DNA from: a virus
Taxonomy: Duplodnaviria > Heunggongvirae > Uroviricota > Caudoviricetes
Strand: one strand, 5' to 3'
Length of the DNA stretch: 34,836 nucleotides
IMG/VR virus record: IMGVR_UViG_2687453454_000001
Span: 1-34,836 of that record
A model generated the notes under the pieces. That model was not told the origin of the DNA and searched no databases. It was given only the letters and a program-made list of their open reading frames with translations. The translations under genes were made by a program, and so were the position numbers. Shown here in pieces: positions 582 through 34,836 of this stretch. Position 1 is the stretch's first letter; every line of letters begins with the position of its first letter.

Positions 582-1589
582 CTATTTTGCCTCTTGGCGG
601 TTATCGAACGGGTTAAGTGCTACCGCAGCATCAAGGTGGTTTGGGGCAAAATGCGCATACCTCATTGTCATCATGATCGTGCTGTGCCCGAGAATTTGCT
701 GTAACACCAAAATATTCCCACCTCGCATCATGAAGTGACTCGCGAATGTATGACGTAGTACATGGGTACGCTGTCCTTTGGGCAGCTCTATACCTGCGCG
801 TGCGAGAGCTGCCTTAAAAGCCTCGTATGCGGGTGAGAAGAGGGCACCACGCTTTTTAGGGAGCATCGCCTGTAGTTGTTGTGAAATTGGCACTGTGCGG
901 TTCTTCTTGCTTTTGGTTTGCGTAAACGTCAGACGACCAGGAAGGATTTGAGATTGCTTTAAGTCTTGAGCCTCGCTCCATCGTGCACCGGTCGCCAGAC
1001 AAATCCGTACGATAATCCCTAAATCTTTATTTGCGGACTGGTCGCATGCTGCAAGCAATCGGTCAATTTCTTCCTCATACAGAAAAGCCAGCTCCTGATC
1101 ACCTTCTTTGAACTGCCTGATTCCAGACAGCGGGTTATCTCCTTCCCATTCCCCCAGCCGCTTCATTTCCGAGAATACTGCATGCAGATAAGACTGCTCG
1201 CGGTTTACTGTCGCTTCACTCAGCTTCTTCTTGCCTTTCTGATTCCATTCACCACTCAAACGCCGTTCCCGGTATACAGCGAAAGTGTTTTTATCAAAGT
1301 GAGAAGCCAATGGATCACCAAGACGTTCGCATATGGCCAGTAATTTCACCTTTCTTTCATCACCAGATGAGAGCGTTTTGCCATGCATCTCGTACCAGCG
1401 TTCAACGAATGCCGAAAGAGTCACAGCGCTGTCGTTTACCGGCTGGTTTGCAGCGTTATTCATTAAACGGCGCTCATGGGAGAGCGCTTCACCTTTGGTA
1501 GCAAATTGCTTACGTATGCGTTTCCCATCACGCCCGTAAGGGAAACACTGACAAAGCCATTTACCGGAGGGTAGTTTTCGGACGGTCAA
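582..1589 (-). CDS. int: P2-family tyrosine integrase
   Basis: 335-aa ORF with catalytic-type motifs ATGARWSEA, HVLRHTFASH and MRYAHF; close resemblance by eye to P2 Int; adjacent to a tRNA gene. Confidence 0.9.
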   Translation of the reverse strand: MTVRKLPSGKWLCQCFPYGRDGKRIRKQFATKGEALSHERRLMNNAANQPVNDSAVTLSAFVERWYEMHGKTLSSGDERKVKLLAICERLGDPLASHFDKNTFAVYRERRLSGEWNQKGKKKLSEATVNREQSYLHAVFSEMKRLGEWEGDNPLSGIRQFKEGDQELAFLYEEEIDRLLAACDQSANKDLGIIVRICLATGARWSEAQDLKQSQILPGRLTFTQTKSKKNRTVPISQQLQAMLPKKRGALFSPAYEAFKAALARAGIELPKGQRTHVLRHTFASHFMMRGGNILVLQQILGHSTIMMTMRYAHFAPNHLDAAVALNPFDNRQEAK

Positions 1590-2464
1590 TTACTCACCTC
1601 TGCATCATCATCAGATCCTGCATACGCGAGTGAAATGAACATTTCCGCAGCGTTATCAAGATGTGCATAGGTTGATGTAAATTCGATATCTCGACACCTA
1701 CAGACGAATGGGCGCGTTTGATTTTCTGGTTGGAAGGATAAACTTACAACTGGAGTTTTGCGTGGTTTACCATTTTTGAAAAAGTTACAGACATCCAAAC
1801 GATTGCAAAGGCCTGCATCATCTTGATAAGTAGCAACATGCCACCCCATACCATGAAGTGTATCGGCAAATGCTAAATGCACTTCTTCGATATTTTTATA
1901 TAAGCCAACGGAGTATTGTTTTTTCTTACTCTCATTACGTTTTCTTGGCAGGGATGGGAGCCTTGCTACACCAGGTATTTCAATTTTTTCCAAGCTGAAT
2001 GTTTTTACCGGGTGAGTCGGAGATGATAGGTCCGCTGCTCGCAGCGTAAAGTTATCAAGCAATGTCAGAGGAAGGATATCTCTTGCTGCTCCGGATCGTT
2101 CACCTCCGTGATAAATGATTGATAAATTATCTTTGGTATCAATTGACGACCAGATCAGGTCCAGAAGAGGGTGTTCATCATGGATTGTAAATGTTGGTGT
2201 ATTGCCCTTTTGACCTTCTATATTTTGCGCATCCGACAAGGGGGATAGGTTTAGAAATTGCTCGGTCGACAGCACCTCTGAACCTTGCTGAGATGCCTTT
2301 TTTATTTTGCTCGGACCAGCATTTTCACCGCAACAGAGATAGTTAAGATCCTTGGTGACATCACTTCTAACGACATATCCACGAGCTTTAGCAATTTCAA
2401 TAAGCTCATTTTTGTCTTTTTTCCCAAAACCTGTAAAACAAATAGTCCTCATATAAAACCCCAC
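1586..2464 (-). CDS. BRCT-domain protein with WYL-like middle domain and C-terminal extension (cargo gene; function unknown)
   Basis: N-terminus TICFTGFGKKDKNELIEIAKARGYVVRSDVTKDLNYLCCGENAGPSKIKKASQQG has the BRCT pattern; the middle LSIIYHGGERSGAARDILPLTLLDNFTLRAADL...KTFSLEKIEI resembles a WYL domain. Probable ATG start at 2452 (ORF track start at 2464 is GTG). Its stop overlaps the int start by 4 nt. Local GC is lower than the phage core. Confidence 0.7.
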   Translation of the reverse strand: MGFYMRTICFTGFGKKDKNELIEIAKARGYVVRSDVTKDLNYLCCGENAGPSKIKKASQQGSEVLSTEQFLNLSPLSDAQNIEGQKGNTPTFTIHDEHPLLDLIWSSIDTKDNLSIIYHGGERSGAARDILPLTLLDNFTLRAADLSSPTHPVKTFSLEKIEIPGVARLPSLPRKRNESKKKQYSVGLYKNIEEVHLAFADTLHGMGWHVATYQDDAGLCNRLDVCNFFKNGKPRKTPVVSLSFQPENQTRPFVCRCRDIEFTSTYAHLDNAAEMFISLAYAGSDDDAEVSN

Positions 2465-2468
2465 GAAG

Positions 2469-3098
2469 TCAGAAAAATAATGAACCTAACAGGAAACCAA
2501 TTAAGAAGATGACAATGAATTCTTTCGCGTGGGATCGCAGCAATGTAGTGACATCCAATGGAGAGTGATTCTCTCTCGGGGGAGAAGGCGGAATATCTTG
2601 TGTTTGCTGGTCCAGCCACGATAAACACATTTGAAGCTGGTTGCGTGTTAGGTCATTCAGTCGACCAGTTCCGAAGTTAACATGGCAATAACGAATCAGT
2701 TTCTGCCTCAATTCGCTGTCTTCACTATTTCGAAGGAGAAGGCTAACAAGTGCTTTACTTGCATCTTTATCCTTAGCGCGTTCGAGCATGGACTGCAAAA
2801 AGCTAACTGCAGTCTGATATTGGTTGACGGTCATTTCTTCGATACTCGAAACGCCAATCTCTGCATGCAGCTTTTGCCAGATCTCATATGCTTCATTGCC
2901 GTAGGAATCAGAAACAAGTGCTACTAGGGCATTAAGTTCTTTTCTCTGCGCCCTAACCAAAGGACGCTCATCGTGAGTATCTGAGGGAATCGCAATGTTG
3001 ATGGTGTGACGGCCATCAAATTTATCGATCTGAACGCGGTTTTCTGTGAAGTCGCGTCCAGCGGTGCGGTTTTGATCTCCAGAGGAATTCACTTCCAT
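2469..3098 (-). CDS. hypothetical protein with C-terminal transmembrane anchor (cargo gene)
   Basis: 209-aa ORF; C-terminus FIVIFLIGFLLGSLFF is a hydrophobic helix; GGGAAG RBS-like sequence about 5 nt upstream of the ATG; starts 13 bp after the repressor stop and ends 4 bp before the BRCT gene. Confidence 0.6.
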   Translation of the reverse strand: MEVNSSGDQNRTAGRDFTENRVQIDKFDGRHTINIAIPSDTHDERPLVRAQRKELNALVALVSDSYGNEAYEIWQKLHAEIGVSSIEEMTVNQYQTAVSFLQSMLERAKDKDASKALVSLLLRNSEDSELRQKLIRYCHVNFGTGRLNDLTRNQLQMCLSWLDQQTQDIPPSPPRENHSPLDVTTLLRSHAKEFIVIFLIGFLLGSLFF

Positions 3099-4756: not shown

Positions 4757-5711
4757 CTCCCCTCTTATTTGGGTGGGCGGCAAGTCTCGCGCTATGTCGC
4801 ATGTGCTTGATGCTTTGCCCCACGGTGAATGCCTGGTTGAGCCTTTCGTGGGAAGCGGTAGCGTCTTCCTGAACACTGATTACAAAACCTATGTTCTCTG
4901 CGATAGCAATGCAGCGCTGATTAATTTCTTTTCAATGGTTAAACGTAATACCGAGGAGCTTTTAACTGCTTCCGCAAAGATATTCGAAAAGGGTAATAAT
5001 GAGATTATATACTATGAATATCGCGACGAATTTAATGTAATCAATCGTGAGTTTAAATATGACCGCCGAAAATATAATGATGAAACGTTAGTTAGATATG
5101 CGGCGCTGTTCCTTTATTTAAACCGCCATTGCTATAACGGTGTATATCGCGTTAATTTGAAAAATGAATTCAACGTTCCTTTTGGTTTTCGTAAGAAGCC
5201 AATTTTCCCTGTGGCTGAGATTCAGCATTTTGCTAAAAGAGCGTGGGAAAAGGGGGCTATGTTCCTGCATGGTGATTTCAGAGCAACAATCCCGCTGGCG
5301 ATTGGTCATTCGGGCTCCGTGGTTTATTGCGATCCGCCATACCTGCCAGCTAGCGAAACTGCGAATTTTACGGCTTACGGCAAGCCATTTACCGATGCAG
5401 ATCACCGCACCTTGGTTGCGATGCTTTCACGCCTCTACAACAACGCAAAAATACCATCTGTCATATCTGGCAGTGACACACCAGAGACGCACCAAATTTA
5501 TTACCCGTTCACCCTAAAAGCTTTCGACGTTCGGCGCTCAGTGGGGGCCAAAACTCGCAACCTTGCTGGCGAGGTTATAGGTACTCTGTGTGTCTGCGAT
5601 TGCTGTGGGAGTGTGGGCGGTGGCTGTCCTGATTGTGGGGCGGTGATGGGCGATGCGACTTATTCAGAAATGGTCGCTTCTGGTGCTTTTGAAGATCAGG
5701 AGGTGTTCTGA
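4749..5711 (+). CDS. DNA N6-adenine methyltransferase (Dam family) with Cys-rich C-terminal tail
   Basis: N-terminal IWVGGKS, SAM-binding EPFVGSGSVFLN and catalytic YCDPPY motifs; C-terminal CVCDCCGSVGGGCPDCG cluster. Confidence 0.85.
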   Translation: MVNSPLIWVGGKSRAMSHVLDALPHGECLVEPFVGSGSVFLNTDYKTYVLCDSNAALINFFSMVKRNTEELLTASAKIFEKGNNEIIYYEYRDEFNVINREFKYDRRKYNDETLVRYAALFLYLNRHCYNGVYRVNLKNEFNVPFGFRKKPIFPVAEIQHFAKRAWEKGAMFLHGDFRATIPLAIGHSGSVVYCDPPYLPASETANFTAYGKPFTDADHRTLVAMLSRLYNNAKIPSVISGSDTPETHQIYYPFTLKAFDVRRSVGAKTRNLAGEVIGTLCVCDCCGSVGGGCPDCGAVMGDATYSEMVASGAFEDQEVF

Positions 5712-5893: not shown

Positions 5894-8335
5894 GTGACTC
5901 AGGCGCGTCGTGTTCACTCAATGACTACGGATAAACCGGGCAACTTTGACGAGTCTGCCCGGTACGCCTATCCGTGGAATGAACCAAAACAGGCCATTGC
6001 CGTTGATAAGACTCCTGCTGTTGATCTATATGAATTGGGTCAAGAGCAGGAGTTTTTCGCGTGGGTTGAAGATACTCTCAAGCCACTACCTACATTTATT
6101 CGCCGCCGCGTTTCATCCCGCATAAATGCCGTACACGCTGACAAAGGGCGTCATATTGCAAAGTTAACTCTTCTCAATATCGTGGCGCGTGACCTTCCAC
6201 ACGTGCGAGCAGTTACAGAGCAATATGCCGCGCCTGTTGGCAGTGACTGGATCATTTATTCCGAATTAAACCCACTTTTTCATACGTTTGATAACCTTCG
6301 CGAACTAACGCGCCGGTTCAATCAGTTGGCTGACTGCACGGACGAAGATATTGATTTACTTGCTCAGGATATCGCTATTTATGCCAATGCTGCCTTAGCT
6401 GAAGTGAGTGAAACCTGTGCTGTACTTAGCCCTGTAGAGTACAGCAAACGAATGCTGCTGGAAGGCTCAAGGCTGATTGCTTACTTCGGGCTAATCGCGC
6501 CCTGGGCTTCACGGCGCAAAATGCCACTTGATGAAATGGCTGCTTCAATTCGAAAAATTCTTGATGATCATTTTTGGTCACGCCTGCTGCGAAAGTACGC
6601 GCGCCGCTGGCGTGAACATCTGCATATTGCCTTTGGTGATGTGCGTCGCGATGTGTCCCCCTATTGCAGCAAAAATCACGTTAAACAGTGGGATGCGCGT
6701 CGCAAACGTAGCAGGGCAATCATGAGCCGCCTGGAACTTGAAGATCAGGTTACGGGTGAGCGCATGTCGTTGATAGAACAGATTGATAAAAGCGTATCGA
6801 ATCCTGAAAAGCGCCGCGTAGAACTTATGACGCGTATTGGTGGCTTTGAGAAGGTGGCAACGGAAAGCGGTTATGCCGGAAGTTTCTTCACGCTCACCGC
6901 CCCGTCTAAATATCATGCCTATACCGCGTTTGGACACCGCAACCACAAGTGGAACGGGGCAAGCCCTCGCCGATCACAGCGGTATCTCAATCAAATATGG
7001 CAACAGATTCGCGCTGAACTCGCACGCCGCGAAATTCCTGTATTCGGTCTTCGCGTTGCTGAATCCCATCATGACGGTACTCCGCACTGGCATGGCCTGC
7101 TGTTTACAGACCCAGAGCACACTGATGAGTTGAAAGAGGTCATGGAAGACTACGCAACGCGTGAGGATGCGGAAGAGTTAACTGGCAAGTCTGGTAAGCA
7201 GCCCCGCTTTGAACTTAAGCCGATTGATCCGGCTTTGGGTAGCGCTACGGGTTATGTCGTTAAATACATCTCAAAAAACATTGATGGTTACGCTCTGGAC
7301 GGCGAGAGCGATCATGAAAGTGGACGCCCTCTGAAGGAAACCGCTAAGCACGCAACAGCCTGGGCGTCATGCTGGGGGATACGCCAATTTCAGTTTTTAG
7401 GGGGAGCGCCGGTGTCAGTCTGGCGTGAACTTCGCCGCCTGAAAAATCAGGATTTAGCCGACAGGGTTAGTCCTGTTTTTGGTGAGCTGCACCGCGCGGC
7501 TCACGCAGGAGATTGGCAGGGTTACATCACCTTACAGGGTGGCCCTTTTGTTTCCCGTTCCAAGTTGGTGCTGCGCGCCTGGTATCAATACAAAAACGAG
7601 CCAAGCAGTTACGGCGAGTATCAGAAAGCTATCAAGGGTCTGGTTATGCCAGCATCCAGCATTCCGCCCGTAGAAACGCGCCTCCATTCTTATCGCATTG
7701 TGAAGATGAGGCCTAAATCTTCAGACCGTGTCGATCCGGGTTTTGACCTTAAGGGCGCGTCTGCGACCTCTTGGACTCGTGTCAATAACTGTACGGAGTA
7801 CAAAAAACACACAGTTTCACCGCCTGTCTATCCTCCAGATCTGACTGTGCCAGCTGGCGAAATACAGCCAGAGCAATTTGAAATCGGTCAGTTAAGCCGA
7901 GATCAGAGAAAACAGATTGAGGAAGACATCAGAAACCACAAATCAAATCAGCGTGTTTCACCTGCTGATCAGTTTGAGATGCTTGCATTAAGCATTACTG
8001 CCGGTGATTGCACCGATTATGACCGGGCTAGGGCTGAAAGCTATATGAAGGCAGCACATGCTCTTCGCCAGGAAGAAAGCGCGGTGAGTGAGGAGGTTGA
8101 ATCCCTGGCCAAGGAAATTATGGGATGGGCGAAGATGAGAAAAATTTCAATCAATCCGGTACAGGCGATGAAGCTGGCTCAGGGGGGAGAAGTAATGGCA
8201 CTTGATACGACATATCGGGCTAACCCGGTAACGGGTGAATTGATTGTGACCGGTGCAGATAAGCACTGGCGCAAGACGCTGGCACGACACAAGGCAGAGA
8301 CATTAGTTAACCGCTGGCTTCAGGCGGTTAAGTGA
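5894..8335 (+). CDS. A: P2 gpA-like rolling-circle replication initiator
   Basis: 813 aa; motifs HHDGTPHWHGLLF and GYVVKYISKNIDGYALDG match the P2 A family; GTG start at 5894 with AAGGTGAG RBS (alternative ATG at 5921). Confidence 0.9.
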   Translation: MTQARRVHSMTTDKPGNFDESARYAYPWNEPKQAIAVDKTPAVDLYELGQEQEFFAWVEDTLKPLPTFIRRRVSSRINAVHADKGRHIAKLTLLNIVARDLPHVRAVTEQYAAPVGSDWIIYSELNPLFHTFDNLRELTRRFNQLADCTDEDIDLLAQDIAIYANAALAEVSETCAVLSPVEYSKRMLLEGSRLIAYFGLIAPWASRRKMPLDEMAASIRKILDDHFWSRLLRKYARRWREHLHIAFGDVRRDVSPYCSKNHVKQWDARRKRSRAIMSRLELEDQVTGERMSLIEQIDKSVSNPEKRRVELMTRIGGFEKVATESGYAGSFFTLTAPSKYHAYTAFGHRNHKWNGASPRRSQRYLNQIWQQIRAELARREIPVFGLRVAESHHDGTPHWHGLLFTDPEHTDELKEVMEDYATREDAEELTGKSGKQPRFELKPIDPALGSATGYVVKYISKNIDGYALDGESDHESGRPLKETAKHATAWASCWGIRQFQFLGGAPVSVWRELRRLKNQDLADRVSPVFGELHRAAHAGDWQGYITLQGGPFVSRSKLVLRAWYQYKNEPSSYGEYQKAIKGLVMPASSIPPVETRLHSYRIVKMRPKSSDRVDPGFDLKGASATSWTRVNNCTEYKKHTVSPPVYPPDLTVPAGEIQPEQFEIGQLSRDQRKQIEEDIRNHKSNQRVSPADQFEMLALSITAGDCTDYDRARAESYMKAAHALRQEESAVSEEVESLAKEIMGWAKMRKISINPVQAMKLAQGGEVMALDTTYRANPVTGELIVTGADKHWRKTLARHKAETLVNRWLQAVK

Positions 8336-8419
8336 GTTTTGAATCAGGTCAGTGTTGTCGGAGCGGTGACGGATGTAAGTGCGATTCGGCTATTCAATGG
8401 AGTTAGAAAGGATAAATAG

Positions 8420-8446
8420 AAATGCCCCGTTGCCGGGGCATTTTTA
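8420..8446. terminator. bidirectional intrinsic terminator
   Basis: Stem ATGCCCCG / CGGGGCAT with loop TTGC, flanked by A-rich sequence on one side and T-rich on the other; sits between convergent gene A and the HTH gene. Confidence 0.7.
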
Positions 8447-8450
8447 CTTA

Positions 8451-8828
8451 CTACTCGAGCGTTAGTTGCTCGGGACTGCATTTGTACAGTGTAGCTAGCC
8501 GTTCAAGGTTGTCTTTGCGAGGACGCTCAGACTTTTCGAACTCGGACACTGTAGATTGCTTAATTCCCAGCGCTTCAGCGACTTGTTTTTGCGTCAAGCC
8601 TCTGTAAACACGCCATGCAGCCTGCATGGTGCAACCCTTCTCAGAAAGAATGTTGATAACTTCGTTTGGGTATCGAACGTTATCAGATGTGCCGGTTTCG
8701 TTTTGAACAGGCTCGTATAACTCTGCGATATCACTATCACGGGTCAGTTTTTCGAACAGTTCAATCGGCACGACAGCAGAAATTCTTTTCCCTCTACTGT
8801 CTGTGATGAATTGAATGTTAGCCATCAC
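8451..8828 (-). CDS. HTH (XRE-type) protein, putative antitoxin
   Basis: 125 aa; C-terminal HTH LTQKQVAEALGIKQSTVSEFEKSER; lies downstream of the RelE/ParE-like gene on the same strand. Confidence 0.6.
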   Translation of the reverse strand: MMANIQFITDSRGKRISAVVPIELFEKLTRDSDIAELYEPVQNETGTSDNVRYPNEVINILSEKGCTMQAAWRVYRGLTQKQVAEALGIKQSTVSEFEKSERPRKDNLERLATLYKCSPEQLTLE

Positions 8829-9011
8829 TCTTTAGTCCTACGTAGATTGTTAAAAAACAAAGATTTTTAACTTATGCGTCTTCGACTGCGTAGACCACTT
8901 GATATAATTTTTGGCATCTAAATACTCCTAATTGGTTGATTGAAATTAAAAATTTTTTTTCTTCAACATCTACCGTTTGAGTTGACGGGGCGGGGTTTCC
9001 CCCGCCACTCA

Positions 9012-9290
9012 TCAATATGTCGTGGACGTTCGGCGCAAGATGCGCTGAATCTCGATCACTACAGGGGCATTGTTGCTTAAGGCATACAACACTCTGTAAT
9101 TCCCAACCCTCAGTCGATACTTACCATCACTATCAGTGAGCTTTTTAACATCAAGCCCCTTCAGGTCAGGATATGACTGCATCGCGTTAACCTTCTCGCG
9201 AACAGCTTTTTGATCTTTTGATGGTAGCGAGCGTAAGTCCTTAACGGCCTTACCAGTCCATTGAATGTTTGTCGTCATGACGAACCTCAA
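9012..9290 (-). CDS. RelE/ParE-superfamily toxin-like protein
   Basis: 92 aa; GKYRLRVGNYRVLYALSNNAPVVIEIQRILRR matches the RelE/ParE core pattern. Confidence 0.65.
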   Translation of the reverse strand: MRFVMTTNIQWTGKAVKDLRSLPSKDQKAVREKVNAMQSYPDLKGLDVKKLTDSDGKYRLRVGNYRVLYALSNNAPVVIEIQRILRRTSTTY

Positions 9291-9332
9291 AGGTAAATTG
9301 TTAAAGAACGCATCCCGAAACTCGGAATAACT

Positions 9333-9404
9333 ACAATATAGGGGTTAACCCCTATATTGTCAAGAAAGCCCTATATTTCCATGCGCTGATATAGGCAATA
9401 TAGT
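9333..9404. promoter_or_regulatory. operator region with perfect 28-bp palindrome and repeated half-sites
   Basis: ACAATATAGGGGTTAACCCCTATATTGT at 9333-9360, plus CCCTATATTT and ATATAGGCAATATAG copies downstream; lies between the divergent toxin gene and the 128-aa gene. Confidence 0.55.
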
Positions 9405-9411
9405 TCGCGAA

Positions 9412-9798
9412 GTGAGTGATACGGTGAATTTTGATGGGCTTTCACGGCAGGAAAAGCGAGAACTGGCACAGCGGTTTAGTGACGTTGTTCGAAGCAAACT
9501 TAAAACACGTCCACCGGAACGAGAAGAAGGGGCTGGACTATCGGTGAAGGAGCTTATAACTAAAGAACTACTTGAGCTATGTGGGATTGATGCCTGTGTC
9601 GGGATGATAAAATCAATAGTACCGGGAACGCATATTGGCTATATCGATCTGATTTTTGAGATCGAAGATGGACGTCTAGCGTTCAAAATTTGCTCAGAAA
9701 CAAACTTCAATGTTGCTACTAAACAAAAGATGGCGAACATTTTAGATAGAGATAGAATACTAAAAAGGTTGAAGCAAGCTTTGTTTACAAATGGATAG
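9412..9798 (+). CDS. hypothetical protein (128 aa), first gene of the AT-rich cargo pair
   Basis: ORF with GTG start at 9412 (alternative GTG at 9424); GC falls along the gene; ends 20 bp before the 944-aa ORF. Confidence 0.5.
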   Translation: MSDTVNFDGLSRQEKRELAQRFSDVVRSKLKTRPPEREEGAGLSVKELITKELLELCGIDACVGMIKSIVPGTHIGYIDLIFEIEDGRLAFKICSETNFNVATKQKMANILDRDRILKRLKQALFTNG

Positions 9799-9818
9799 GG
9801 CAAAAAAGATGCCTCGTT

Positions 9819-12653
9819 ATGTGTGTCGTTATTTACCACAAATTGGGATTGGTTATGAGCATTATGAAAATAGAAGTAAAAGGTAAGCCAAAAGGAGCAG
9901 TCATTTATATCAATGTCAAGAAAACCATAGCTTTTTATTTGACGATTTCAATTTTAATTCTGCTTGGGATGTATTTATCACGTTTTTGTTCTGTGCCATA
10001 TAAATATTTATTGATTAGCCCATCTTTTTATAATAATCCATATCTTAATTGGATAACTGGTGTTTGGGGTAGTTTTTTAGGCATGCACGGTACTATAGCT
10101 GCTTTGTCTATAACTTTTATGGGAATGTTTGTCGATCAGGTTTCAAAGACATCTGAACATGGTTTTGAGCATTTATCGAAAGTCTTATTGCTAAGAGAGT
10201 ATGATTTTTTAGGATTTAGTGTTGAATCAGTGTGTAGTCTATTATGTGGCGTTTTTTTACTTCTCATTGGTAGTGGCTTGATTGGATATTTAATTTCATC
10301 TTTACTTTCTTTATTTTTTATCACTAAATATGGCATTATGTATTATAGACTTTACCATTTAACAGAAGAACCCGGAGTTATTAATGGGATTTTATTAGAT
10401 TCTATCAGGACAACAGGCATCAAGTATAATGAGATTAACAAACAACGACAGATTCTTGCTAACGAGTTTTCTCAAGTAATATCGGGAGGTGATTACTACA
10501 GTGATGATCAAAGTGCCTTCTATTGGAATGATGATGCGATAACGATAAATATTTTTCCTGATGACACTGATGTGGTTATTTCTGGATACAATCCAAACAT
10601 ATTTAATCAGCTTTCGGTAAAGATTAAAGAATTTAATTTGAACCATCCGCCTATCTTGCTTTTCTCTTTATCATTCTTATCACCCATATCAAATTCCTCA
10701 ATGAAAATCATTCCATCTAATAAATCTGATTTGACAGAGGAGCATATTTCATCAATTGAATCAATTTTGAGGAAAGGGCTGATATTTAGTTCTGTTCCTT
10801 ATGTTTTTAATGAGTTTAAACAATTTGAAGAAGCTCTTGTAGTAAACGTCAGAAACAGTTTGCTGAATGGTGATGAGTGGACGTTAGATTTTGGAGTGCG
10901 TATTTTTTATGAACTAACTTCAAATGATAACTATATCTACACTCTAAAGAATATAGATTTGTCAATTACGTCCTCTAATACTAAAGATGTGGTGAAAACA
11001 TCTTTGTTTGCAAGTTATTTTGAAAAAATGATACGTGAGGCTTATAATCAGAGTAATCTTGAAAAGGCTGCTAATATAATGCGGTCGTTAATAGACCTAG
11101 CGAGATATATTTATGGTAAGAATAACTTTGTCGATTTTTATAAAAGGATTTTTAGACAATTTGACCATAGGGTAAAGTATCGTGCAGAAGAATCAAATTA
11201 TGTTTTTTTAGATCTGTATACATCCACTGTGCTGCACAACCTAGTATATAAGAATTATGCGGCTTTCAAAGTTGATACTGAGTTTGTGACGCGTAGATTG
11301 CAGTATCTAGATCTTAGCAATAAAACAGAACATGATTCATTGAATGAAATGCAACGTAAGATATTACGTTTATTATTTGAAGTTATATCCTTGCTAATTA
11401 TGCGAATAGAGCATGTGAAGGCGAAGGGTGAAGAACGCAAAGAGGAACTCAACGAATTAATCATTTCATTGAAGTCTTGGGTAAATGCTAAATTTTTGCA
11501 GGAATTATATTACAAAAAAGAGCTTTACGATGTGTTGTTTACTATACCTCAAGAGTTTTCGGTATTCGGTGCAGAAACTAAAATTCGAGAAATACCAGAT
11601 GGTGAAGCGACATGGAGATCAGTTTCGAACGATACTTATAAGATGATCGCATTCGTTCTTACGCAAAGCTCTTTCAACAATAATCAATTGAATCTTTTAT
11701 TTGTTAGAGATGCATTTCAATTTAAAAATGCTACGTCAATATTAACCCGCGAATTAAGTTCTATAATAGATTACATAGAGGGTGAATCTTTCTCTAAATT
11801 ATTTAAATTGATAACTGAAAAGGATTTGGTCGAAGATAGTAATAAAAAAACAGTAGTTGAGAAGTTGGAGTCGATTATTTCCTCGCAAAATTCTTTAGTG
11901 CTGCGCAGTGTGATCGAATCAGAATTAGAGCCTTCATTGGTTGATAAATATAGTAACGAGATCATACATTCTGTGGAGAAGCTATTTGAGCTAATTTTGC
12001 CATTGGAAGCAATTCCTTTAGAGATTGGATTCAATGGGATCGAATCACATCTATTAATTAATAAAAGAGAGGTGCTCCCCCCAATTGATGGTGTTTCTTA
12101 TGGAATGAACATTCATAACCATAGTCAGTGGTTAATATATGAATGGATCAGGAGTGTATTAAACAGTATTGATATAAATGCTGTGGAGGTTATCACTATT
12201 GATGACCCACAAGATTTGCCAACCGAAAAATTAGTTACCATAGAATATCAAGTTGAAGATAGAGTTAACACTTTTAGGCATTCTCGAGGTTTAAAAATTA
12301 ATGATAAGGAAGGCCATTTGAATTTGAATGGTTCTGGCTTGTATTATTTGGATTTATTAAATAACTTTAATTTAAAAAAATCAAAAGAAATACTAACGGT
12401 TAACATAGAAAAGATATTTGAAGGAAATATTGAAATGGTTAAAGGACGATATGATTTTGATAATGATAATCCTTATCTATATTCAATTTTAAATGTCGTT
12501 TTTAACATTGTTGCCATACCAAATATGATATGTAAACTTTATTTTCTATCGGAAGATAAATGTCTGTTAATCAATCAAAAACAAGAAAGAGAGATGGAGC
12601 AATTAATTAAAGGGAACAGAACGGAGAATCCTGATAACAGTAATGTATCTTAA
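9819..12653 (+). CDS. large AT-rich membrane-anchored protein of unknown function (944 aa)
   Basis: Uninterrupted 2.8-kb ORF in very AT-rich DNA; N-terminal hydrophobic helices (TIAFYLTISILILLGMYL, WITGVWGSFLGMHGTIAALSITFMGMFV, VCSLLCGVFLLLIGSGLIGYLISSLLSLFFI) then about 750 aa of soluble sequence; alternative starts at 9855 and 9864. Confidence 0.7.
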   Translation: MCVVIYHKLGLVMSIMKIEVKGKPKGAVIYINVKKTIAFYLTISILILLGMYLSRFCSVPYKYLLISPSFYNNPYLNWITGVWGSFLGMHGTIAALSITFMGMFVDQVSKTSEHGFEHLSKVLLLREYDFLGFSVESVCSLLCGVFLLLIGSGLIGYLISSLLSLFFITKYGIMYYRLYHLTEEPGVINGILLDSIRTTGIKYNEINKQRQILANEFSQVISGGDYYSDDQSAFYWNDDAITINIFPDDTDVVISGYNPNIFNQLSVKIKEFNLNHPPILLFSLSFLSPISNSSMKIIPSNKSDLTEEHISSIESILRKGLIFSSVPYVFNEFKQFEEALVVNVRNSLLNGDEWTLDFGVRIFYELTSNDNYIYTLKNIDLSITSSNTKDVVKTSLFASYFEKMIREAYNQSNLEKAANIMRSLIDLARYIYGKNNFVDFYKRIFRQFDHRVKYRAEESNYVFLDLYTSTVLHNLVYKNYAAFKVDTEFVTRRLQYLDLSNKTEHDSLNEMQRKILRLLFEVISLLIMRIEHVKAKGEERKEELNELIISLKSWVNAKFLQELYYKKELYDVLFTIPQEFSVFGAETKIREIPDGEATWRSVSNDTYKMIAFVLTQSSFNNNQLNLLFVRDAFQFKNATSILTRELSSIIDYIEGESFSKLFKLITEKDLVEDSNKKTVVEKLESIISSQNSLVLRSVIESELEPSLVDKYSNEIIHSVEKLFELILPLEAIPLEIGFNGIESHLLINKREVLPPIDGVSYGMNIHNHSQWLIYEWIRSVLNSIDINAVEVITIDDPQDLPTEKLVTIEYQVEDRVNTFRHSRGLKINDKEGHLNLNGSGLYYLDLLNNFNLKKSKEILTVNIEKIFEGNIEMVKGRYDFDNDNPYLYSILNVVFNIVAIPNMICKLYFLSEDKCLLINQKQEREMEQLIKGNRTENPDNSNVS

Positions 12654-12788
12654 AAAGAATAAGTGATTGATACCTTACTATCAATGCGCAAAATTTACAT
12701 GGAATTTTGTCAAAGTAGATCACGTGAGGCGGGGAAAATTGAAAATGATCTAAAGGTAATCGCTAGTCAAAAGATTGCACTAGGCGGC

Positions 12789-12887
12789 TGCACAATAGTG
12801 CACAAGTTTGCACAATTTTTGAAACAACGTTTTTTCCATGCCGCCCCAGCGCTGGCGGGGCCTGGGCGGACTGCACAAAGTGCACAA
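12789..12887. repeat. five copies of TGCACAA in the packaging region
   Basis: Copies at 12789, 12799, 12809 (exactly 10 bp apart) and 12872, 12881, immediately upstream of the cos-like sequence. Confidence 0.6.
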
Positions 12888-12909
12888 AAAGAGGCCGGTT
12901 TAGCGCGCA

Positions 12910-12930
12910 GGCGAGGCGGGGGAGCAAGCG
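12910..12930. other. cos site (P2-type cohesive-end sequence)
   Basis: GGCGAGGCGGGGGAGCAAGCG resembles the P2 19-nt cohesive end GGCGAGGCGGGGAAAGCAC as I recall it; lies next to the portal and terminase genes. Confidence 0.6.
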
Positions 12931-13161
12931 CGCGCAAAGGGGGGCAGGTAGGGGGGCATATCCTTCGCCATTCGCCGTCTGTCGGGTGCTCATGTTGATG
13001 GTTGAGCGAAGCGGCAGCGCGAGAGAAGTCGCGCCAGAAGCCCGTTGGCTGCGTCTGGTAGGGGGGGGGTTTATTTGTGTTTCGTGAGTGGCCGAGATGG
13101 CCGGAAATGATGGTGCTGCGGGTGGTACCGCACCGCCAGAAATGACGATGCGGCAAGGAGA

Positions 13162-14214
13162 TCACTTCGTGGGTTCAAGCAATGCGTAAGGGTTGAAGCG
13201 AATCACCTCCTCACCCAGCCAGTCGTTAACATGCTTCATGGCTTCCATGTAGGGTGTCAGCTCGTTGACGGCGAACACGCGGGCCGCTTTCTCAATATCA
13301 CCGAATGAACCGTTCCCTTCCGGAATGGCGCCCATCAGTTGCGGCGGTACCCGGTGCGCTGCCAGCATGTCATCGCGGGTGGAAGACTTCACCCCCACAA
13401 ACTCATCCTTAGCCGATATCTGGCTGAATGGCAGTATTTGCACGGAGTCTTTGCCGCCGTTAGGTGCGTGCAGAAGGATGTTCTTAAACGCACCGCCGCG
13501 CCGGGTATCCGTCAGCGTCTTTTTGAGCTTATCAAGGCTCTCCTGGTCGGCCATCGCGCTGTTAACGTAGACGATGCAGCCAGCGTGTGAGCCGTTGTCG
13601 TAGTAAAGCTTTCTGAACTTGTCAGCAGAATGGGCCAGATTTGCAGACAGCAGGCCAGCGAAATACTCAGGCATGCCGTATATTTCCTGGTGAATATCCG
13701 GGCTGAGAACGTGGCATACCGAGCCCGTTGAAAACATGTGATCCTGTAGCCCGGCCTGAATAAACCAGTAAGTGTCCAGGTCAGAACCACGGCGTGTGTA
13801 TTTCGCCAGCGAGTGACGAAAGCCAAAGGAACCACCAAGCCGGTTTTTTCGCATCTCAAGATAACCATTCCCGAAGACAAACCAGTCCAGCGCGAAGGCG
13901 GAGAACACCTGGCGGGAAAGAAGTTTGTGCGGGACAAAGCATCCGGCAAGGACGTTGCGCTTGAAATAAAGCGCCGACTGGTGCCAGCTCGCATAGCCAA
14001 ACTGACGGGCGAGGCCATACCAGTCAATGGGGGTTTCGTAGTATCGCCCGTTGTCTGCGCAATACATGTTATCAAGCAGGTCGCTGGCACCACTCACCGG
14101 CCATGGACCGTCGAAGGTGAATGAGTTCAGCTCCGGTGACGCTTTCAGTGAGGCGGCGAGATCTGCCTGCTCCCTGGCATACTTCCTGCCGCGTGTGGGT
14201 CTTTGTTTGCTCAA
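13162..14214 (-). CDS. Q: portal protein (gpQ-like)
   Basis: 350 aa; position next to cos and the large terminase, and P2 Q-like sequence. Confidence 0.88.
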   Translation of the reverse strand: MSKQRPTRGRKYAREQADLAASLKASPELNSFTFDGPWPVSGASDLLDNMYCADNGRYYETPIDWYGLARQFGYASWHQSALYFKRNVLAGCFVPHKLLSRQVFSAFALDWFVFGNGYLEMRKNRLGGSFGFRHSLAKYTRRGSDLDTYWFIQAGLQDHMFSTGSVCHVLSPDIHQEIYGMPEYFAGLLSANLAHSADKFRKLYYDNGSHAGCIVYVNSAMADQESLDKLKKTLTDTRRGGAFKNILLHAPNGGKDSVQILPFSQISAKDEFVGVKSSTRDDMLAAHRVPPQLMGAIPEGNGSFGDIEKAARVFAVNELTPYMEAMKHVNDWLGEEVIRFNPYALLEPTK

Positions 14215-14216
14215 GG

Positions 14217-15938
14217 TTAATACTCCGTAACTGTCATACTGCTGCCGCCTTCTTGTCCCAGCGGTTCGTTAATGGTGGCAAGCATCGTCGCCCATGCGAG
14301 ATCGCCATGACTGACGCCGCGAGAGCGGTCCGTGTCGTAAGTGACAACACCGCCAGGGGTAACGATCTTGCGGACAGAGTTGAATGCACCAACCAGGTCA
14401 AGCTCACCACGATCAAACTCCCAGCGCCCGCCACGAATCAGCTGTTGCATCTTCAGCACGAGCATTCGTTTGCTGGACGGTGAGAACTGGTAACAAACCG
14501 CTGCCGGGAAATGCTTTTTAACCAGCTGATAAACCGCTTCACCAATACCGGTGCCATCGATCCCAATGTGCTGCACGTTGTACCGGGTGAGCATGCCGAT
14601 AATTAGATTGGCCTGCTCTTCGAACTCCATCCCTCGTATGCGTAGTGTCTCAATCGTGCGGAACTTGCCGCCGGGCACCATCGGCACAGCGTTAACGGAT
14701 ATGGCTCCACTGTCCCCCTTGCCGCTGGCGCCGTTCGGGTCATAGCCAATCCAGACGGGACGATCAGCCATGGGGCGGGCCGCATATGGCCGCCAGTCGG
14801 GCCAGTCGTCATAACCATCAGCGCCGCATGCCAGTAGTCTGTTATAGTCAAAGGCGCTTTCACCGCTTTTGATGAACTGGCATCCGTACAGGTTGTCGTA
14901 TTCCTCCGGGCTGTTCTCTTCCCGGATTTCGTCGATATCAGTCAGATCCCATCCATGGTCGATAGCATCCTGCAACGTGACAATCTGCCTCCAGATCTTG
15001 TCCGGGCACATCAGGCCGCTGTTAAGCGTTTTCCAGGATGTATCAAATTCAATGCGCTTGCCATGGCTGCGACCTTTGTTAAATGCTTCACCTGTCCAGA
15101 ATGGATAAGCCTCATGGCTTTCTGCTGAAGGGGTGGAGAAATAGGTACGCGTTAGACCTTTTAGCGTTGCCATGGCGCCCGCGACTTTTTTCAGGTTGGC
15201 AAACTGGCCTACCCAAAAGAATTCGTCGAAATACAGGTTGCCCGTGTATGACTGAGCGGTAGCCGCTGACGTGCCAAGAAAATGCAGCTCGGCGCCGTTG
15301 AACAGCTGGATCATGTCGCCGCCCTTAAGCTCTACATCTACTTCTTCAGCGGCCGAGCGAATGAAACTTCGAAACTGGTACGCCTGGCGGCGGCTTGCCG
15401 ATAAAAAGATTTGGTTGCGCTGATGCTTATATTTCACATCCTCAGACAGGGCGCGCACCAGAGCTTCACGTGCGAAATACCACGTCGCGCCAACCTGACG
15501 GCTTTTCAGGATCATGCGGTTACGCCAGTGGTGATTGTCATACCACCCTTTCTGGTGCCAGTGCAGAGAGCCGAGAATGTTCTCCCGCAGCGCGGCAATC
15601 TGCGACTCTGAGAAATAGTTTTGCTTTTTGCGGATCTTTTTCTTCGGCTGGGTGGCTGCTGTGCCGTTATCCAGCTTTTTCAACTGACGGGTGAGCAGGT
15701 CAATCTCTTTGAAATCACCGCCGGTCTTTTTGTCTTTGCCAGTGAGCTGAATTAGCCTGGCATCAATGGATGTTGTCACGCGCTGGATCGGCGGTGTGGC
15801 GTCCCATTCATCTCGCTTTTTCCATGAGTAAACCGTGTTCTGGTTGATCCCCATCAGGCGTGCGATCTCTGCTGGCGGGTAGCCCTGCCAGTAAAGCTGT
15901 CGTGCACGCTGCATGATGAATGCTTCTTCAATCGCCAT
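14217..15938 (-). CDS. P: terminase large (ATPase) subunit (gpP-like)
   Basis: 573 aa; N-terminal QGYPPAEIARLMGINQNTVYSWKK HTH-like region typical of P2 gpP; adjacent to portal. Confidence 0.88.
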   Translation of the reverse strand: MAIEEAFIMQRARQLYWQGYPPAEIARLMGINQNTVYSWKKRDEWDATPPIQRVTTSIDARLIQLTGKDKKTGGDFKEIDLLTRQLKKLDNGTAATQPKKKIRKKQNYFSESQIAALRENILGSLHWHQKGWYDNHHWRNRMILKSRQVGATWYFAREALVRALSEDVKYKHQRNQIFLSASRRQAYQFRSFIRSAAEEVDVELKGGDMIQLFNGAELHFLGTSAATAQSYTGNLYFDEFFWVGQFANLKKVAGAMATLKGLTRTYFSTPSAESHEAYPFWTGEAFNKGRSHGKRIEFDTSWKTLNSGLMCPDKIWRQIVTLQDAIDHGWDLTDIDEIREENSPEEYDNLYGCQFIKSGESAFDYNRLLACGADGYDDWPDWRPYAARPMADRPVWIGYDPNGASGKGDSGAISVNAVPMVPGGKFRTIETLRIRGMEFEEQANLIIGMLTRYNVQHIGIDGTGIGEAVYQLVKKHFPAAVCYQFSPSSKRMLVLKMQQLIRGGRWEFDRGELDLVGAFNSVRKIVTPGGVVTYDTDRSRGVSHGDLAWATMLATINEPLGQEGGSSMTVTEY

Positions 15939-26419: not shown

Positions 26420-26702
26420 TTAACATCACCTCCCAAATCTGCGTTTCACTCTCTTCTGCATCTGAACCGTAGAAGCCAATTAATTCTACGATGATCTCTC
26501 CTGACTCCTTTCTGGCATTCAGTACAGGATTGGGGGTTAACACAGATACAAAATCGACCGCGATATCGCCATCATTCAGGATGCTAAAATCGAATGAATC
26601 GGCAACATCATCAACTTCAATCGTTAATACATCACCTTTTGCCGACACTTTCATGACGTAATCAGAACGCTGCGGGGTAAAGATTGCTTTCATCAGAACC
26701 AT
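26412..26702 (-). CDS. alternative tail fibre assembly protein, N-terminal-part ORF
   Basis: 96 aa; ends 8 nt after the next ORF's ATG; sits between H' and the Tfa C-terminal-domain ORF. Confidence 0.5.
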   Translation of the reverse strand: MVLMKAIFTPQRSDYVMKVSAKGDVLTIEVDDVADSFDFSILNDGDIAVDFVSVLTPNPVLNARKESGEIIVELIGFYGSDAEESETQIWEVMLNG

Positions 26703-27100
26703 CTCCCAACTGCTGTATATCCAAGATATGCCGCTGCATTTTGCACATTGCTAATCAGCGCCAGTGACGTCCCAGTCAGTGAACTACCGCGAACGGAAGG
26801 CCACGATGATGTACCACCTGTTGATAGTGGAGCAGAAGGTGCTACGGCTGGCCTGGTGCCAACGAAAGTTGCAGGAAAAGTGAACACAGATTCAGTGGAA
26901 AAATATAGGTTTGTCGTTCCACCACTAGGGTTACTTGTTATGGATTCGACCGACTTGGTAAAACAACAGATTAATGTTCCGTCGGCGAATTTTGTGTACT
27001 CACCATTTGAGTTAGATCCTCTCTCAATAATTGCCCCGGTCGGAACTCCCCCTGACTGAGATACTGTTCCTACGACATCAGCTTTAGCAGCCGTTCGCAA
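26693..27100 (-). CDS. alternative tail fibre C-terminal (receptor-binding) segment H', promoterless
   Basis: Reading frame runs from the right crossover site; Gly/Ser/Thr-rich, fibre-tip-like sequence; would fuse to the constant H N-terminus after inversion. Confidence 0.6.
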   Translation of the reverse strand: MRTAAKADVVGTVSQSGGVPTGAIIERGSNSNGEYTKFADGTLICCFTKSVESITSNPSGGTTNLYFSTESVFTFPATFVGTRPAVAPSAPLSTGGTSSWPSVRGSSLTGTSLALISNVQNAAAYLGYTAVGRWF

Positions 27101-27117
27101 ACCAACGTTTTCCGGAA
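27092..27117. repeat. right crossover site of the invertible segment
   Basis: CGTTCGCAAACC-AA-CGTTTTCCGGAA; its reverse complement resembles the left site with the matching central dinucleotide. Confidence 0.5.
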
Positions 27118-27223
27118 GACATGGTTACTTCTGACGGTGCGGTACCTAACCTGCAGTACAGCCAGAAATGACGATGCTCGATACAATGCGAGGGACTATG
27201 GCATCTAAATAAAGGGGATTTTT

Positions 27224-27793
27224 ATGCTGATCGGCTATGTTAGGGTGTCAACAAATGACCAGAACACCGCGCTGCAAAGAAATGCGCTGGAAAGCGCAGG
27301 ATGTGAACAAATATTTGAAGACAAAATAAGCGGCACAAAAGCGGAAAGGCCGGGGCTTAAGCGTTTATTACGAACCTTATCGAAGGGGGATACGCTGGTT
27401 GTCTGGAAGCTTGATCGTCTCGGGCGGAGCATGCGCCACTTGGTGACCATGATTGAAGAGCTACGCAATCGCGGTGTTAACTTCCGCAGCCTGACAGACA
27501 GCATTGATACCTCAACACCTATGGGGCGTTTTTTCTTTCACGTCATGGGGGCGCTGGCAGAAATGGAGAGAGAGTTAATCGTTGAGCGCACCCGCGCCGG
27601 TTTGGTTGCGGCTCGTGCAGAAGGAAGGATAGGAGGGAGGCGACCAAAACTGACAGAGCAGCAATGGGAACAGGCGGGAAGACTGATCGCCGCAGGGGAG
27701 AAACGACAGCGGGTGGCTATTATTTTTGATGTCGGAATATCGACACTTTATAAAAAGTTCCCTTCAACAAGAAGGGAACATGAAGGGGCTTAA
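27224..27793 (+). CDS. serine DNA invertase (Hin/Gin/Pin/Cin family)
   Basis: N-terminus MLIGYVRVSTNDQ with the catalytic serine context; GRRPKL and C-terminal HTH typical of this family. Confidence 0.92.
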   Translation: MLIGYVRVSTNDQNTALQRNALESAGCEQIFEDKISGTKAERPGLKRLLRTLSKGDTLVVWKLDRLGRSMRHLVTMIEELRNRGVNFRSLTDSIDTSTPMGRFFFHVMGALAEMERELIVERTRAGLVAARAEGRIGGRRPKLTEQQWEQAGRLIAAGEKRQRVAIIFDVGISTLYKKFPSTRREHEGA

Positions 27794-27800
27794 GGCATTA

Positions 27801-33329: not shown

Positions 33330-33387
33330 ACAAAAGGCTGTTTGTCCTATCGCGCGCGCATGGAAATATTTGCGGGAGGAGAAAGCG

Positions 33388-34542: not shown

Positions 34543-34587
34543 CGGCCATAATATGAGCGAGTTCAACTCCCGCCATGGGAGGCCATT

Positions 34588-34836
34588 ATGTTTAAGTGTC
34601 CTGTTTGTGGTGCCGTCGCCCGTACGCGCACCAGTCGCCCTCTTAGTGAAATGACAGTCCGGCATTATCACCAGTGCCAGAATTTCGAATGCAGTATTAC
34701 GTTTACTACGCTCAACAGCGTTGAGAAGCTTGTAACCAAACGCGCGCCCCGCGAAAAGTTACCGGCTGATTTCATCCCATCCGATGCTTTCCCTGCTTCG
34801 CACTATGGGAGGAATCAGCTTAATTTGGCCCTCTAA
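34588..34836 (+). CDS. ogr: Ogr/Delta-family zinc-finger late-gene activator
   Basis: MFKCPVCG...RHYHQCQNFECSITF has the Cys4 zinc-finger spacing of P2 Ogr. Confidence 0.85.
   Translation: MFKCPVCGAVARTRTSRPLSEMTVRHYHQCQNFECSITFTTLNSVEKLVTKRAPREKLPADFIPSDAFPASHYGRNQLNLAL

Follow-up and report, generated by a model that had tools for sequence, protein, structure and literature searches.

The interval between replication gene A and the cohesive-end site (cos) of P2-like phages is an accessory slot, and the locus considered here raises the question of what its unusually AT-rich DNA encodes and whether that cargo could protect the bacterial host. The sequence analysed, hereafter the window, is the whole stretch of 34,836 nucleotides of IMG/VR virus record IMGVR_UViG_2687453454_000001 (Caudoviricetes, positions 1 to 34,836), which represents a P2-like prophage of Escherichia coli. 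An initial annotation, made from the letters alone, described two open reading frames (ORFs) in this interval, at 9412-9798 (128 amino acids, GTG start) and 9819-12653 (944 amino acids), and interpreted them as a candidate for a recently acquired, undescribed two-gene defence or exclusion module behind a multi-site palindromic operator; structure prediction and a survey of the same interval in related prophages were suggested as checks. Both ORFs are found exactly at these positions, and the interval is indeed the P2 accessory hotspot, that is, the slot between gpA and gpQ. However, the real cargo in the AT-rich DNA is one gene rather than two, and it encodes a 932-residue inner-membrane protein of a rare family, for which a role in phage exclusion or abortive infection is somewhat favoured.

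A single large gene under purifying selection

The large gene is delimited as follows.

9855-12653, plus strand: cargo gene for a 932-amino-acid inner-membrane protein, WP_139246995.1 (start taken from PGAP and homologue starts)

The start chosen by the ORF caller, at 9819, would add 12 residues that the homologues lack. PGAP and nearly all homologues support 9855, and the ATG at 9819 is followed by an immediate stop in the closest relative, an Enterobacter prophage (L007). A length of 932 rather than 944 residues is therefore likely.

With a GC content of 31.7%, compared with 51.9% in the remainder of the locus, the gene is far more AT-rich than the prophage core, as had been observed at the outset; along the window, GC amounts to 30-33% over 10000-12500 and to 53-59% in the late genes. 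The same trait had been read as a mark of recent acquisition, a conclusion that does not hold. Members of the family keep a GC content of 30-32% in P2-like and P4-like elements, regardless of backbone (47-57%) and divergence, so that low GC is a stable family trait that shows foreign character but not recency.

Being AT-rich, rare and unannotated, the region might also be regarded as acquired junk or a decaying gene. This explanation is effectively refuted by the selection analysis, in which dN/dS of the large gene is 0.10-0.14 at dS values of 0.4-1.5. In addition, 932 codons are kept open in 32% GC DNA, where the chance of a 2.8-kb ORF is about e^-75 by our own estimate (approximately 7.6% stop codons), more than 45 diverged full-length homologues exist, and the protein yields a confident structural model. 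The large gene is real, functional and under strongly purifying selection.

The homologues form 51 clusters at 90% identity (approximately 910-960 amino acids), and 45 representative clusters at 50% identity are present among 1.84 billion proteins. With evident fragments set aside, full-length members measure about 800-960 amino acids, mostly 910-960; all names given to them are 'hypothetical', and all those with a named organism come from Enterobacterales (Escherichia, Enterobacter, Klebsiella, Serratia and Rahnella). The gene corresponds to phrog_10073/18005, function unknown. Within E. coli its distribution is sporadic: window positions 9300-12700 are found at 100% identity in 8 of 5426 complete chromosomes and are absent from the other 5418 (megablast).

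The small ORF as a remnant of a foreign gene A

The smaller reading frame, hereafter ORF128, and the boundary next to it are described by two features.

9412-9798, plus strand: A', the 3'-terminal 128 codons of an Enterobacter-type gene A (aligned with gpA C-termini)
9405, no strand: recombination joint at the left end of the imported block, within the foreign gene A (start of collinearity with L007, L014 and L002)

Residues 1-128 of ORF128 align without gaps to residues 658-785 of the 785-residue gpA of L007 (69.5% identity, E 3e-55), with a stop codon shared at the end of the alignment. ORF128 also matches the gpA C-termini of two other loci (L008 and L002), and at the DNA level window positions 9408-9606 are approximately 80% identical to 'replication endonuclease' genes of other P2-like prophages (megablast). 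The C-terminus of the window's own gene A product is unrelated to it. ORF128 has no Pfam match and falls outside the catalytic Phage_GPA domain (PF05840), which occupies residues 159-474 in L007 gpA. Judged from these alignments, ORF128 is a fragment of gene A and not a functional gpA.

Comparison of whole loci locates the boundary of the imported DNA. Window positions 9405-12694 are collinear with L007 positions 7550-10840 at 79.8% DNA identity, running through the large gene, and the match opens 394 bp before the end of L007 gene A. The stop codon of A lies 58 bp from the large gene in L007, and 56 bp separate the ORF128 stop from the start at 9855 in the window. The GTG 'start' of ORF128 corresponds to an ancestral Val codon, the first start-type codon past an upstream stop. 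Where A is intact, as in Klebsiella, Serratia and Enterobacter relatives, a separate small ORF is absent, and it is likewise absent in the P4 context. The two genes of the proposed module are consequently reduced to a 3' remnant of gene A and one cargo gene. L014, in which the large protein is 89% identical, is an independently decayed relative: its A is 5'-truncated at a different point (residue 632), and A' contains a premature stop while the large gene is intact. As a decay test for A', dN/dS was rejected as uninformative, since the value for ORF128 (0.20-0.33) is equal to that obtained when intact A 3' ends are compared with one another.

These comparisons indicate that ORF128 is a recombination scar that has been annotated as a hypothetical protein, not an independent gene; it was co-imported because the cassette boundary falls inside gene A. 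Such a scar is better evidence of import than AT-richness. The block 9405-12694 was acquired by cassette exchange from a P2-like phage, and a piece of A came along because the donor carried the large gene directly behind an intact A. Mosaicism of this kind is also visible in another IMG/VR record (L023; compared region, window 9421-15938), whose portal and terminase are 98-99% identical to those of the window. There, an intact A of the L007 type abuts a large gene that is just 78% identical to the window's, which shows that early region, cargo and late region recombine independently.

A separate observation concerns the DNA around the end of A'. When L007, L008, L014 and the window are compared over window positions 9720-9855, the last approximately 25 codons of A or A' and the intergenic DNA are far better conserved than the adjacent part of A'. 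This stretch contains a conserved block, TTTAGATAGAGATAGAATA, and a comparable motif can be aligned in front of the P4-borne homologue (L012). The stretch may carry regulatory signals of the cassette; clear -35/-10 elements were looked for in it and not found.

Stacked cargo between gene A and cos

The remaining features of the interval and its flanks are listed from left to right.

5894-8335, plus strand: replication gene A, 813 amino acids (Phage_GPA domain at residues 201-466, E 9e-95; PGAP 'replication endonuclease')
8451-8828, minus strand: helix-turn-helix (HTH, Xre-type) antitoxin-like gene, 125 amino acids (HTH_3, 47.9 bits; phrog_7241, E 6.5e-32)
9012-9290, minus strand: RelE/ParE-family toxin-like gene, 92 amino acids from a TTG start (ParE_toxin PF05016, 32.1 bits at a cut-off of 23; phrog_1213)
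9333-9403, no strand: palindromic operator region on the promoter of the toxin-antitoxin (TA) pair (perfect 28-bp palindrome at 9333-9360; half-sites at 9366-9377 and 9394-9403)
12910-12928, no strand: cos-like sequence GGCGAGGCGGGGGAGCAAG, right boundary of the hotspot (read from the sequence by eye; contains an indel)
13162-14214, minus strand: portal gene Q, right of the cos-like site

The prophage's own gene A is complete and makes the left flank of the hotspot. On the right, GGCGAGGCGGGGGAGCAAG begins approximately 260 bp beyond the stop codon of the large gene; we take it to resemble the P2 cohesive end, and a search of the window for the exact P2 cos pattern, allowing up to three mismatches, gave no match. 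Two genes had been thought to fill the interval, a view that overlooked the toxin and the HTH antitoxin-like gene on the minus strand. The A-cos interval is a stack of cargo rather than a single two-gene operon and holds, from left to right, the minus-strand TA pair with its operator, the A' scar and the cargo gene at 9855-12653.

The pair displays, at the level of sequence, the features expected of a type II TA module, namely a RelE/ParE-fold toxin, an adjacent co-oriented HTH gene and a palindrome on the promoter. The toxin gene matches phrog_1213 'RelE-like toxin' with E 3e-16 and is named 'type II TA system RelE family toxin' by PGAP, which places its start at 9278. The toxin gene comes first and the HTH antitoxin-like gene second. 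The same pair occupies the A-Q hotspot of the P2-like Klebsiella phage 3LV2017 (toxin 65% and antitoxin 74% identical at the amino acid level), a phage without any homologue of the large gene. The order of the genes, with the toxin gene upstream of the HTH antitoxin gene, and the palindrome over a sigma-70 promoter resemble HigBA-type toxin-first RelE/ParE-Xre modules, from which the window pair differs in an unusually long spacer of 183 bp that holds a strong GC hairpin. This hairpin, GGCGGGGGAAACCCCGCC, lies at approximately 8985-9008, directly after the toxin stop codon, with a folding energy of about -24 kcal/mol; the corresponding spacing in 3LV2017 is 85 bp. The TA pair itself may have a role in defence or addiction.

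The palindromes are real, as initially reported, and their assignment to the rightward genes is not supported. The best promoter-like site of the intergenic region 9291-9411 is on the minus strand, directed into the toxin gene and overlain by the 28-bp palindrome; it consists of a -35 element TTGACA at 9363-9358, a 17-nt spacer and a -10 element TATATT at 9340-9335 (11/12 match). The block of TTGACA, palindrome and TATATT is conserved, together with the 5' leader, before the toxin gene of 3LV2017. Considering this underlying promoter and the retention of the block in a phage that lacks the large gene, the palindromes are predicted to be the operator of the RelE/ParE-HTH module. They stop at 9403, two bases ahead of the imported block. 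Rightward co-regulation by the operator, if any, would be an accident of the junction and not a designed arrangement.

These results also bear on the proposal that the palindromic operator controls a two-gene defence operon made up of ORF128 and the large gene. The two ORFs are co-oriented and 20-56 bp apart, PGAP calls ORF128 a coding sequence, its dN/dS gives no sign of decay, and a weak plus-strand promoter-like site (TTTCCA-17-TATAGT at 9376-9404, 9/12) overlaps the right-hand half-sites. Nevertheless, such an operon is very improbable, given that ORF128 consists of the C-terminal 128 residues of another phage's gpA with a dN/dS like that of intact A 3' ends, that the large gene of relatives directly follows an intact A or, in P4, occurs without any A, that the A' of L014 is interrupted beside an intact large gene, and that the operator block moves with the TA module.

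Next to cos, window positions 12654-13161 form a GC-rich non-coding stretch with a run of nine G at approximately 13053-13061. The portal gene lies at 13161-14213 in strain BN01 and at 13162-14214 in the window, which places a 1-bp shift somewhere within 12654-13161; a length difference in a homopolymer is the likely cause.

Architecture and conservation of the large protein

An AlphaFold 2 (AF2) model of the 932-residue protein was obtained with a mean pLDDT of 86, and two parts can be distinguished.

9891-10367, plus strand: four transmembrane (TM) helices, residues 13-44, 66-97, 118-137 and 142-171 (hydropathy and AF2 helices)
10368-12617, plus strand: cytoplasmic part, with domains from residue 174 to 921

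Hydropathy and the AF2 helices thus agree with the N-terminal membrane anchor that had been recognized before. The lysine-rich N-terminus and the charged loop at residues 94-117 (K/R distribution) are consistent with an N-in/C-in orientation in the inner membrane, with approximately 750 residues in the cytoplasm. In the model, the cytoplasmic part begins with a long helix (residues 174-210), which is followed by an alpha/beta domain (230-315), an all-alpha solenoid (316-715), a beta-rich C-terminal domain (approximately 720-900) and a terminal helix (900-921).

Conservation across the family is highest in the membrane domain, with a majority fraction of 0.68-0.77 at residues 51-150. The second TM helix carries the motif W66..W71..L75..H78-G-T-I-A-A-x-S-I-T-F-M, in which polar and aromatic residues including S85 are invariant; the P4-borne homologue, with 32% identity over the TM region and 22% over the remainder of the protein, keeps this motif. 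Conserved polar intramembrane residues of this type are atypical for a mere anchor. The lowest conservation is found at residues 201-300 (0.41-0.43), which include most of the alpha/beta domain. A second motif, K737-R-E...D745-G in the C-terminal domain, is common even to remote relatives.

The structure prediction and structure searches suggested at the outset yielded this confident model, no recognisable enzyme fold in the cytoplasmic region and no significant match. Weak matches to the HK97 fold (capsid/encapsulin) recur in all three structure searches, none of them significant; no signal was obtained when the profile of the C-terminal domain was compared with P2 gpN. Sequence-profile searches of the PDB returned no match, whether the full-length family or the C-terminal domain was used as query, and a central P-loop STAND NTPase domain, as in STAND/NLR-like (Avs-type) defence NTPases, was not found in the large protein. 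The label 'ligand-binding sensor domain' given by PGAP is not supported, as it goes back to a sub-threshold PSII_BNR hit (14 bits at a cut-off of 27, residues 550-611) in a region that is helical in the AF2 model.

Searches against Pfam, NCBIfam and PADLOC assigned neither ORF128 nor the large protein to a known family, and the earlier impression that no known defence family can be recognized in them stands. For the large protein, no match was obtained in PADLOC-DB v2, which includes Old, Kiwa, Zorya, Avs, CBASS effectors and the systems of Rousset 2022 and Vassallo 2022, as far as that library covers them. When 37 family members were compared with PADLOC, the matches were scattered and at chance level (E of 0.001 or above, at most three members per model). 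Candidate matches to PSII_BNR, iSTAND, Phytoreo_P8 and ZorA in Pfam, NCBIfam, PADLOC and PHROGs scans of the two proteins and the 37 members were isolated and sub-threshold, and were discarded.

Genomic contexts of the family

The survey of related loci showed that the large gene is the single cargo gene in most of them. Among 24 further loci, 22 are in the gpA-gpQ slot of P2-like phages or prophages, and in the other two (L012 and L016) a diverged homologue lies beside a P4-type integrase. At all 22 gpA-gpQ loci the gene shares the orientation of A and invariably comes last before the cos/Q side; it is mostly the direct successor of an intact A (gap of 57-340 bp) with no partner, and any extra cargo sits between A and the gene. 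In L012, which belongs to a P4-like satellite, the homologue is flanked by delta and the integrase, a position that corresponds to the P4 hotspot. The gene also remains intact in prophage remnants without structural genes (L005 and L006 from Serratia, and L014). Megablast and tblastn searches of the GenBank phage collection found no phage record with the large gene.

A remote relative, P0085, shares a four-TM N-terminus and a length of approximately 940 amino acids, and hhalign connects it over the KRE..DG region with 95.5% probability. It is located directly behind a type I restriction-modification (R-M) operon, next to an integrase, and its own family is an orphan.

A candidate exclusion or abortive-infection protein

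The hotspots of P2 and P4 have been defined as anti-phage reservoirs (Rousset et al. 2022, PMC9122126), and in a 2026 preprint 6 of 8 randomly picked unknown P4-hotspot loci were protective. Table S10 of DefensePredictor (Science 2026, PMC13092281) includes the exact protein of the window, WP_139246995.1, under the heading 'Predicted novel defense gene', with a mean log-odds of 5.56 (cut-off 4, range 4.0-7.4) and with empty HHblits and Foldseek columns; it is not in the tables of units that were cloned and tested in that study. The family accessions were not found in the Rousset 2022 supplements, neither they nor the PHROG ids are mentioned in the main text of papers, and the architectures of the new P4 systems in the 2026 Moura de Sousa preprint differ from that of the large protein. 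The description of the locus as an undescribed defence candidate is therefore half right: defence is the most plausible reading, and the gene, uncharacterised yet not unnoticed, has already been flagged computationally.

A defence role is considered the most plausible because the family is confined to P2 and P4 hotspots, P0085 lies near an R-M operon and DefensePredictor flags the protein. On these grounds, the odds are slightly in favour of the large protein acting as a single-polypeptide phage exclusion or abortive-infection factor. Taken as a whole, the stacked-cargo explanation that includes such a protein stands at about an even chance.

With regard to mechanism, the lack of an enzymatic fold, the strong conservation of the membrane part and the variability of a cytoplasmic domain suggest, tentatively, that a sensor is linked to a membrane effector. 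Recognition of a phage-made component would fall to the cytoplasmic alpha/beta domain, solenoid and C-terminal domain, and the conserved four-TM domain would act as the effector that compromises the membrane. A more specific version, which we consider improbable, takes the weak HK97-type matches literally: the C-terminal domain would be a capsid-like decoy that, together with the solenoid, engages capsid-assembly intermediates of the invader and triggers membrane collapse through the four-TM domain. If this were true, the protein would represent a new single-polypeptide family common to P2 and P4 hotspots with decoy-based capsid sensing, and a rare case of a defence family shared by P2 phages and P4 satellites, which, according to the 2026 preprint, almost never exchange defence genes.

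Several considerations weigh against a defence role. The functional case is one of guilt by association, and the allocation of sensing to one end of the protein and action to the other is itself tentative. In the P2 hotspot, 3 of 8 candidates were validated, and the slot also houses genes unrelated to defence, among them partition systems and cytolethal distending toxin (PMC9122126). DefensePredictor validated 45% of tested units (PMC13092281). The score of 5.56 is modest, and the features used include GC content and neighbouring genes, so that it is not independent of the argument from context. In addition, no convincing -35/-10 elements were found on the plus strand upstream of the large gene in relatives with an intact A (L007), and the sole plus-strand promoter candidate in the window is the weak 9/12 site, which lies on the TA side of the joint. 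As no convincing promoter of its own is seen in those relatives, the gene may be read from the early lytic operon instead of in lysogens.

The same facts are compatible with a non-defence accessory membrane protein that serves the lytic cycle as part of the early operon, lysogenic conversion or the envelope, or maintenance. The hotspot gene is always downstream of A, co-oriented and without a clear promoter of its own in relatives, the slot is shared with non-defence cargo, and over half of predicted defence units fail validation. Such a role is nonetheless rather unlikely. The sporadic presence of the gene (8 of 5426 genomes) indicates that it is not needed for the P2 life cycle, its persistence in remnants devoid of structural genes argues for a benefit to the host, it occurs in P4 satellites without gpA and as a remote relative in an R-M island, and in the window the convergent TA pair cuts it off from the early operon.

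If the protein is defensive, it need not kill the cell. The membrane domain might sense DNA entry or perturbation while the cytoplasmic part blocks a phage component, as in Kiwa, or the protein might prevent injection as a superinfection-exclusion factor. The combination of a membrane anchor and a large cytoplasmic scaffold of binding type, with no enzymatic or pore-forming fold, the prophage-hotspot context, and the weak, non-significant HK97-capsid-like matches, which hint at an interaction with capsid assembly, would fit this alternative. It is weakened by the absence of similarity to KwaA, KwaB or any PADLOC model, and the highly conserved polar residues of the second TM helix fit an active membrane function, without specifying which. 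To our knowledge, phage injection blockers are small proteins, which speaks against injection blocking in particular. Overall, non-suicidal defence is viewed as unlikely, and membrane-directed exclusion or abortive infection remains the preferred reading.

Comparison with known systems

The lambda RexA/RexB system, of which RexB is a four-TM protein, offers a parallel in logic. The large protein is likewise prophage-borne, four inner-membrane TM helices are found in it by hydropathy and in the AF2 model, and a sensor with a membrane effector is proposed for it. It differs in that both parts would reside in one 932-residue polypeptide, and most large-gene loci have no partner gene; the likeness to RexB is drawn from background knowledge and concerns the logic only.

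CBASS, Pycsar and type II Thoeris TM effectors are comparable in the proposed combination of cytoplasmic sensing and a multi-helix inner-membrane effector; the large protein has no detectable homology to them and no nucleotide-signal-binding domain, and membrane damage by it is a matter of conjecture. Kiwa, which consists of a four-TM protein (KwaA) and a DUF4868 protein (KwaB), similarly joins a four-TM component to a large, non-enzymatic cytoplasmic component, whereas the large protein is the product of one gene rather than two, has no DUF4868 and does not match the PADLOC Kiwa models. Kiwa is also recorded in P2/P4 hotspots in part of the Rousset 2022 supplement.

The P2 genes old and tin, canonical occupants of this hotspot, share with the large gene the same gpA-cos/gpQ slot and the character of sporadic, AT-rich accessory genes that are exchanged as cassettes (PMC9122126). 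The large protein has no relationship to their products in sequence or fold, lacks the ABC-ATPase/TOPRIM organization of Old and is a membrane protein. Finally, the uncharacterized predicted defence genes of DefensePredictor include this exact protein (PMC13092281); that entry is a computational prediction without architecture, context or mechanism.

Other features of the prophage

Between integrase and repressor, positions 1586-3098 (minus strand) encode a 288-residue protein with an N-terminal BRCT domain and a 209-residue membrane protein without a Pfam family, forming a second accessory slot. A weak match links the BRCT region to the PADLOC candidate PDC-S48 (E 4e-6), and related prophages fill this slot with other genes (Flk_N, DUF8087 and VasI). 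At 4794-5669, PGAP flags a truncated Dam-type methyltransferase, with its C-terminus missing, and a 78-bp gene fragment just before A; related phages have an intact methyltransferase of 288-338 amino acids at the equivalent position, and the region is probably a further recombination or deletion scar in the early region.

In the tail-fibre region (approximately 25800-27800), GC dips to about 46%, and a serine recombinase/invertase gene at 27224-27793 (Resolvase and HTH_7, E 7e-53) adjoins opposed tail-fibre-assembly genes and a truncated copy, an arrangement that looks like an invertible host-range switch of the G/C-segment type. In a near-identical RefSeq record (BN01), the equivalent of window positions 33387-34836 has gpD and the Ogr/Delta late activator annotated as frameshifted; judged from this annotation, the prophage may be defective in late gene expression. 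A cluster of tRNA-Gly, tRNA-Cys and tRNA-Leu genes at 152-453 directly precedes the integrase gene (582-1589, minus strand), and the 3' end of the tRNA-Leu gene is the probable integration site of the prophage.

Significance

The practical value of the finding is moderate, given that unknown genes are common in the P2 hotspot and that the large gene is already on a prediction list. The locus nevertheless provides a worked example of cargo stacking, in which cassette exchange leaves a datable gene A scar and places new cargo beside a TA module. Gene A scars of this kind can mislead annotation, appearing as a hypothetical protein or as part of an apparent 'two-gene system', yet they mark cassette boundaries.

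The large gene can credibly be placed in a new, unrelated family of candidate defence proteins carried by these hotspots. If it proves protective, it would add a defence family without detectable relation to known ones that is present in both P2 and P4 hotspots and that joins a scaffold resembling a sensor to a conserved membrane domain within one polypeptide. Such a protein would be a compact model in which to study the coupling of cytoplasmic recognition to a membrane effector.

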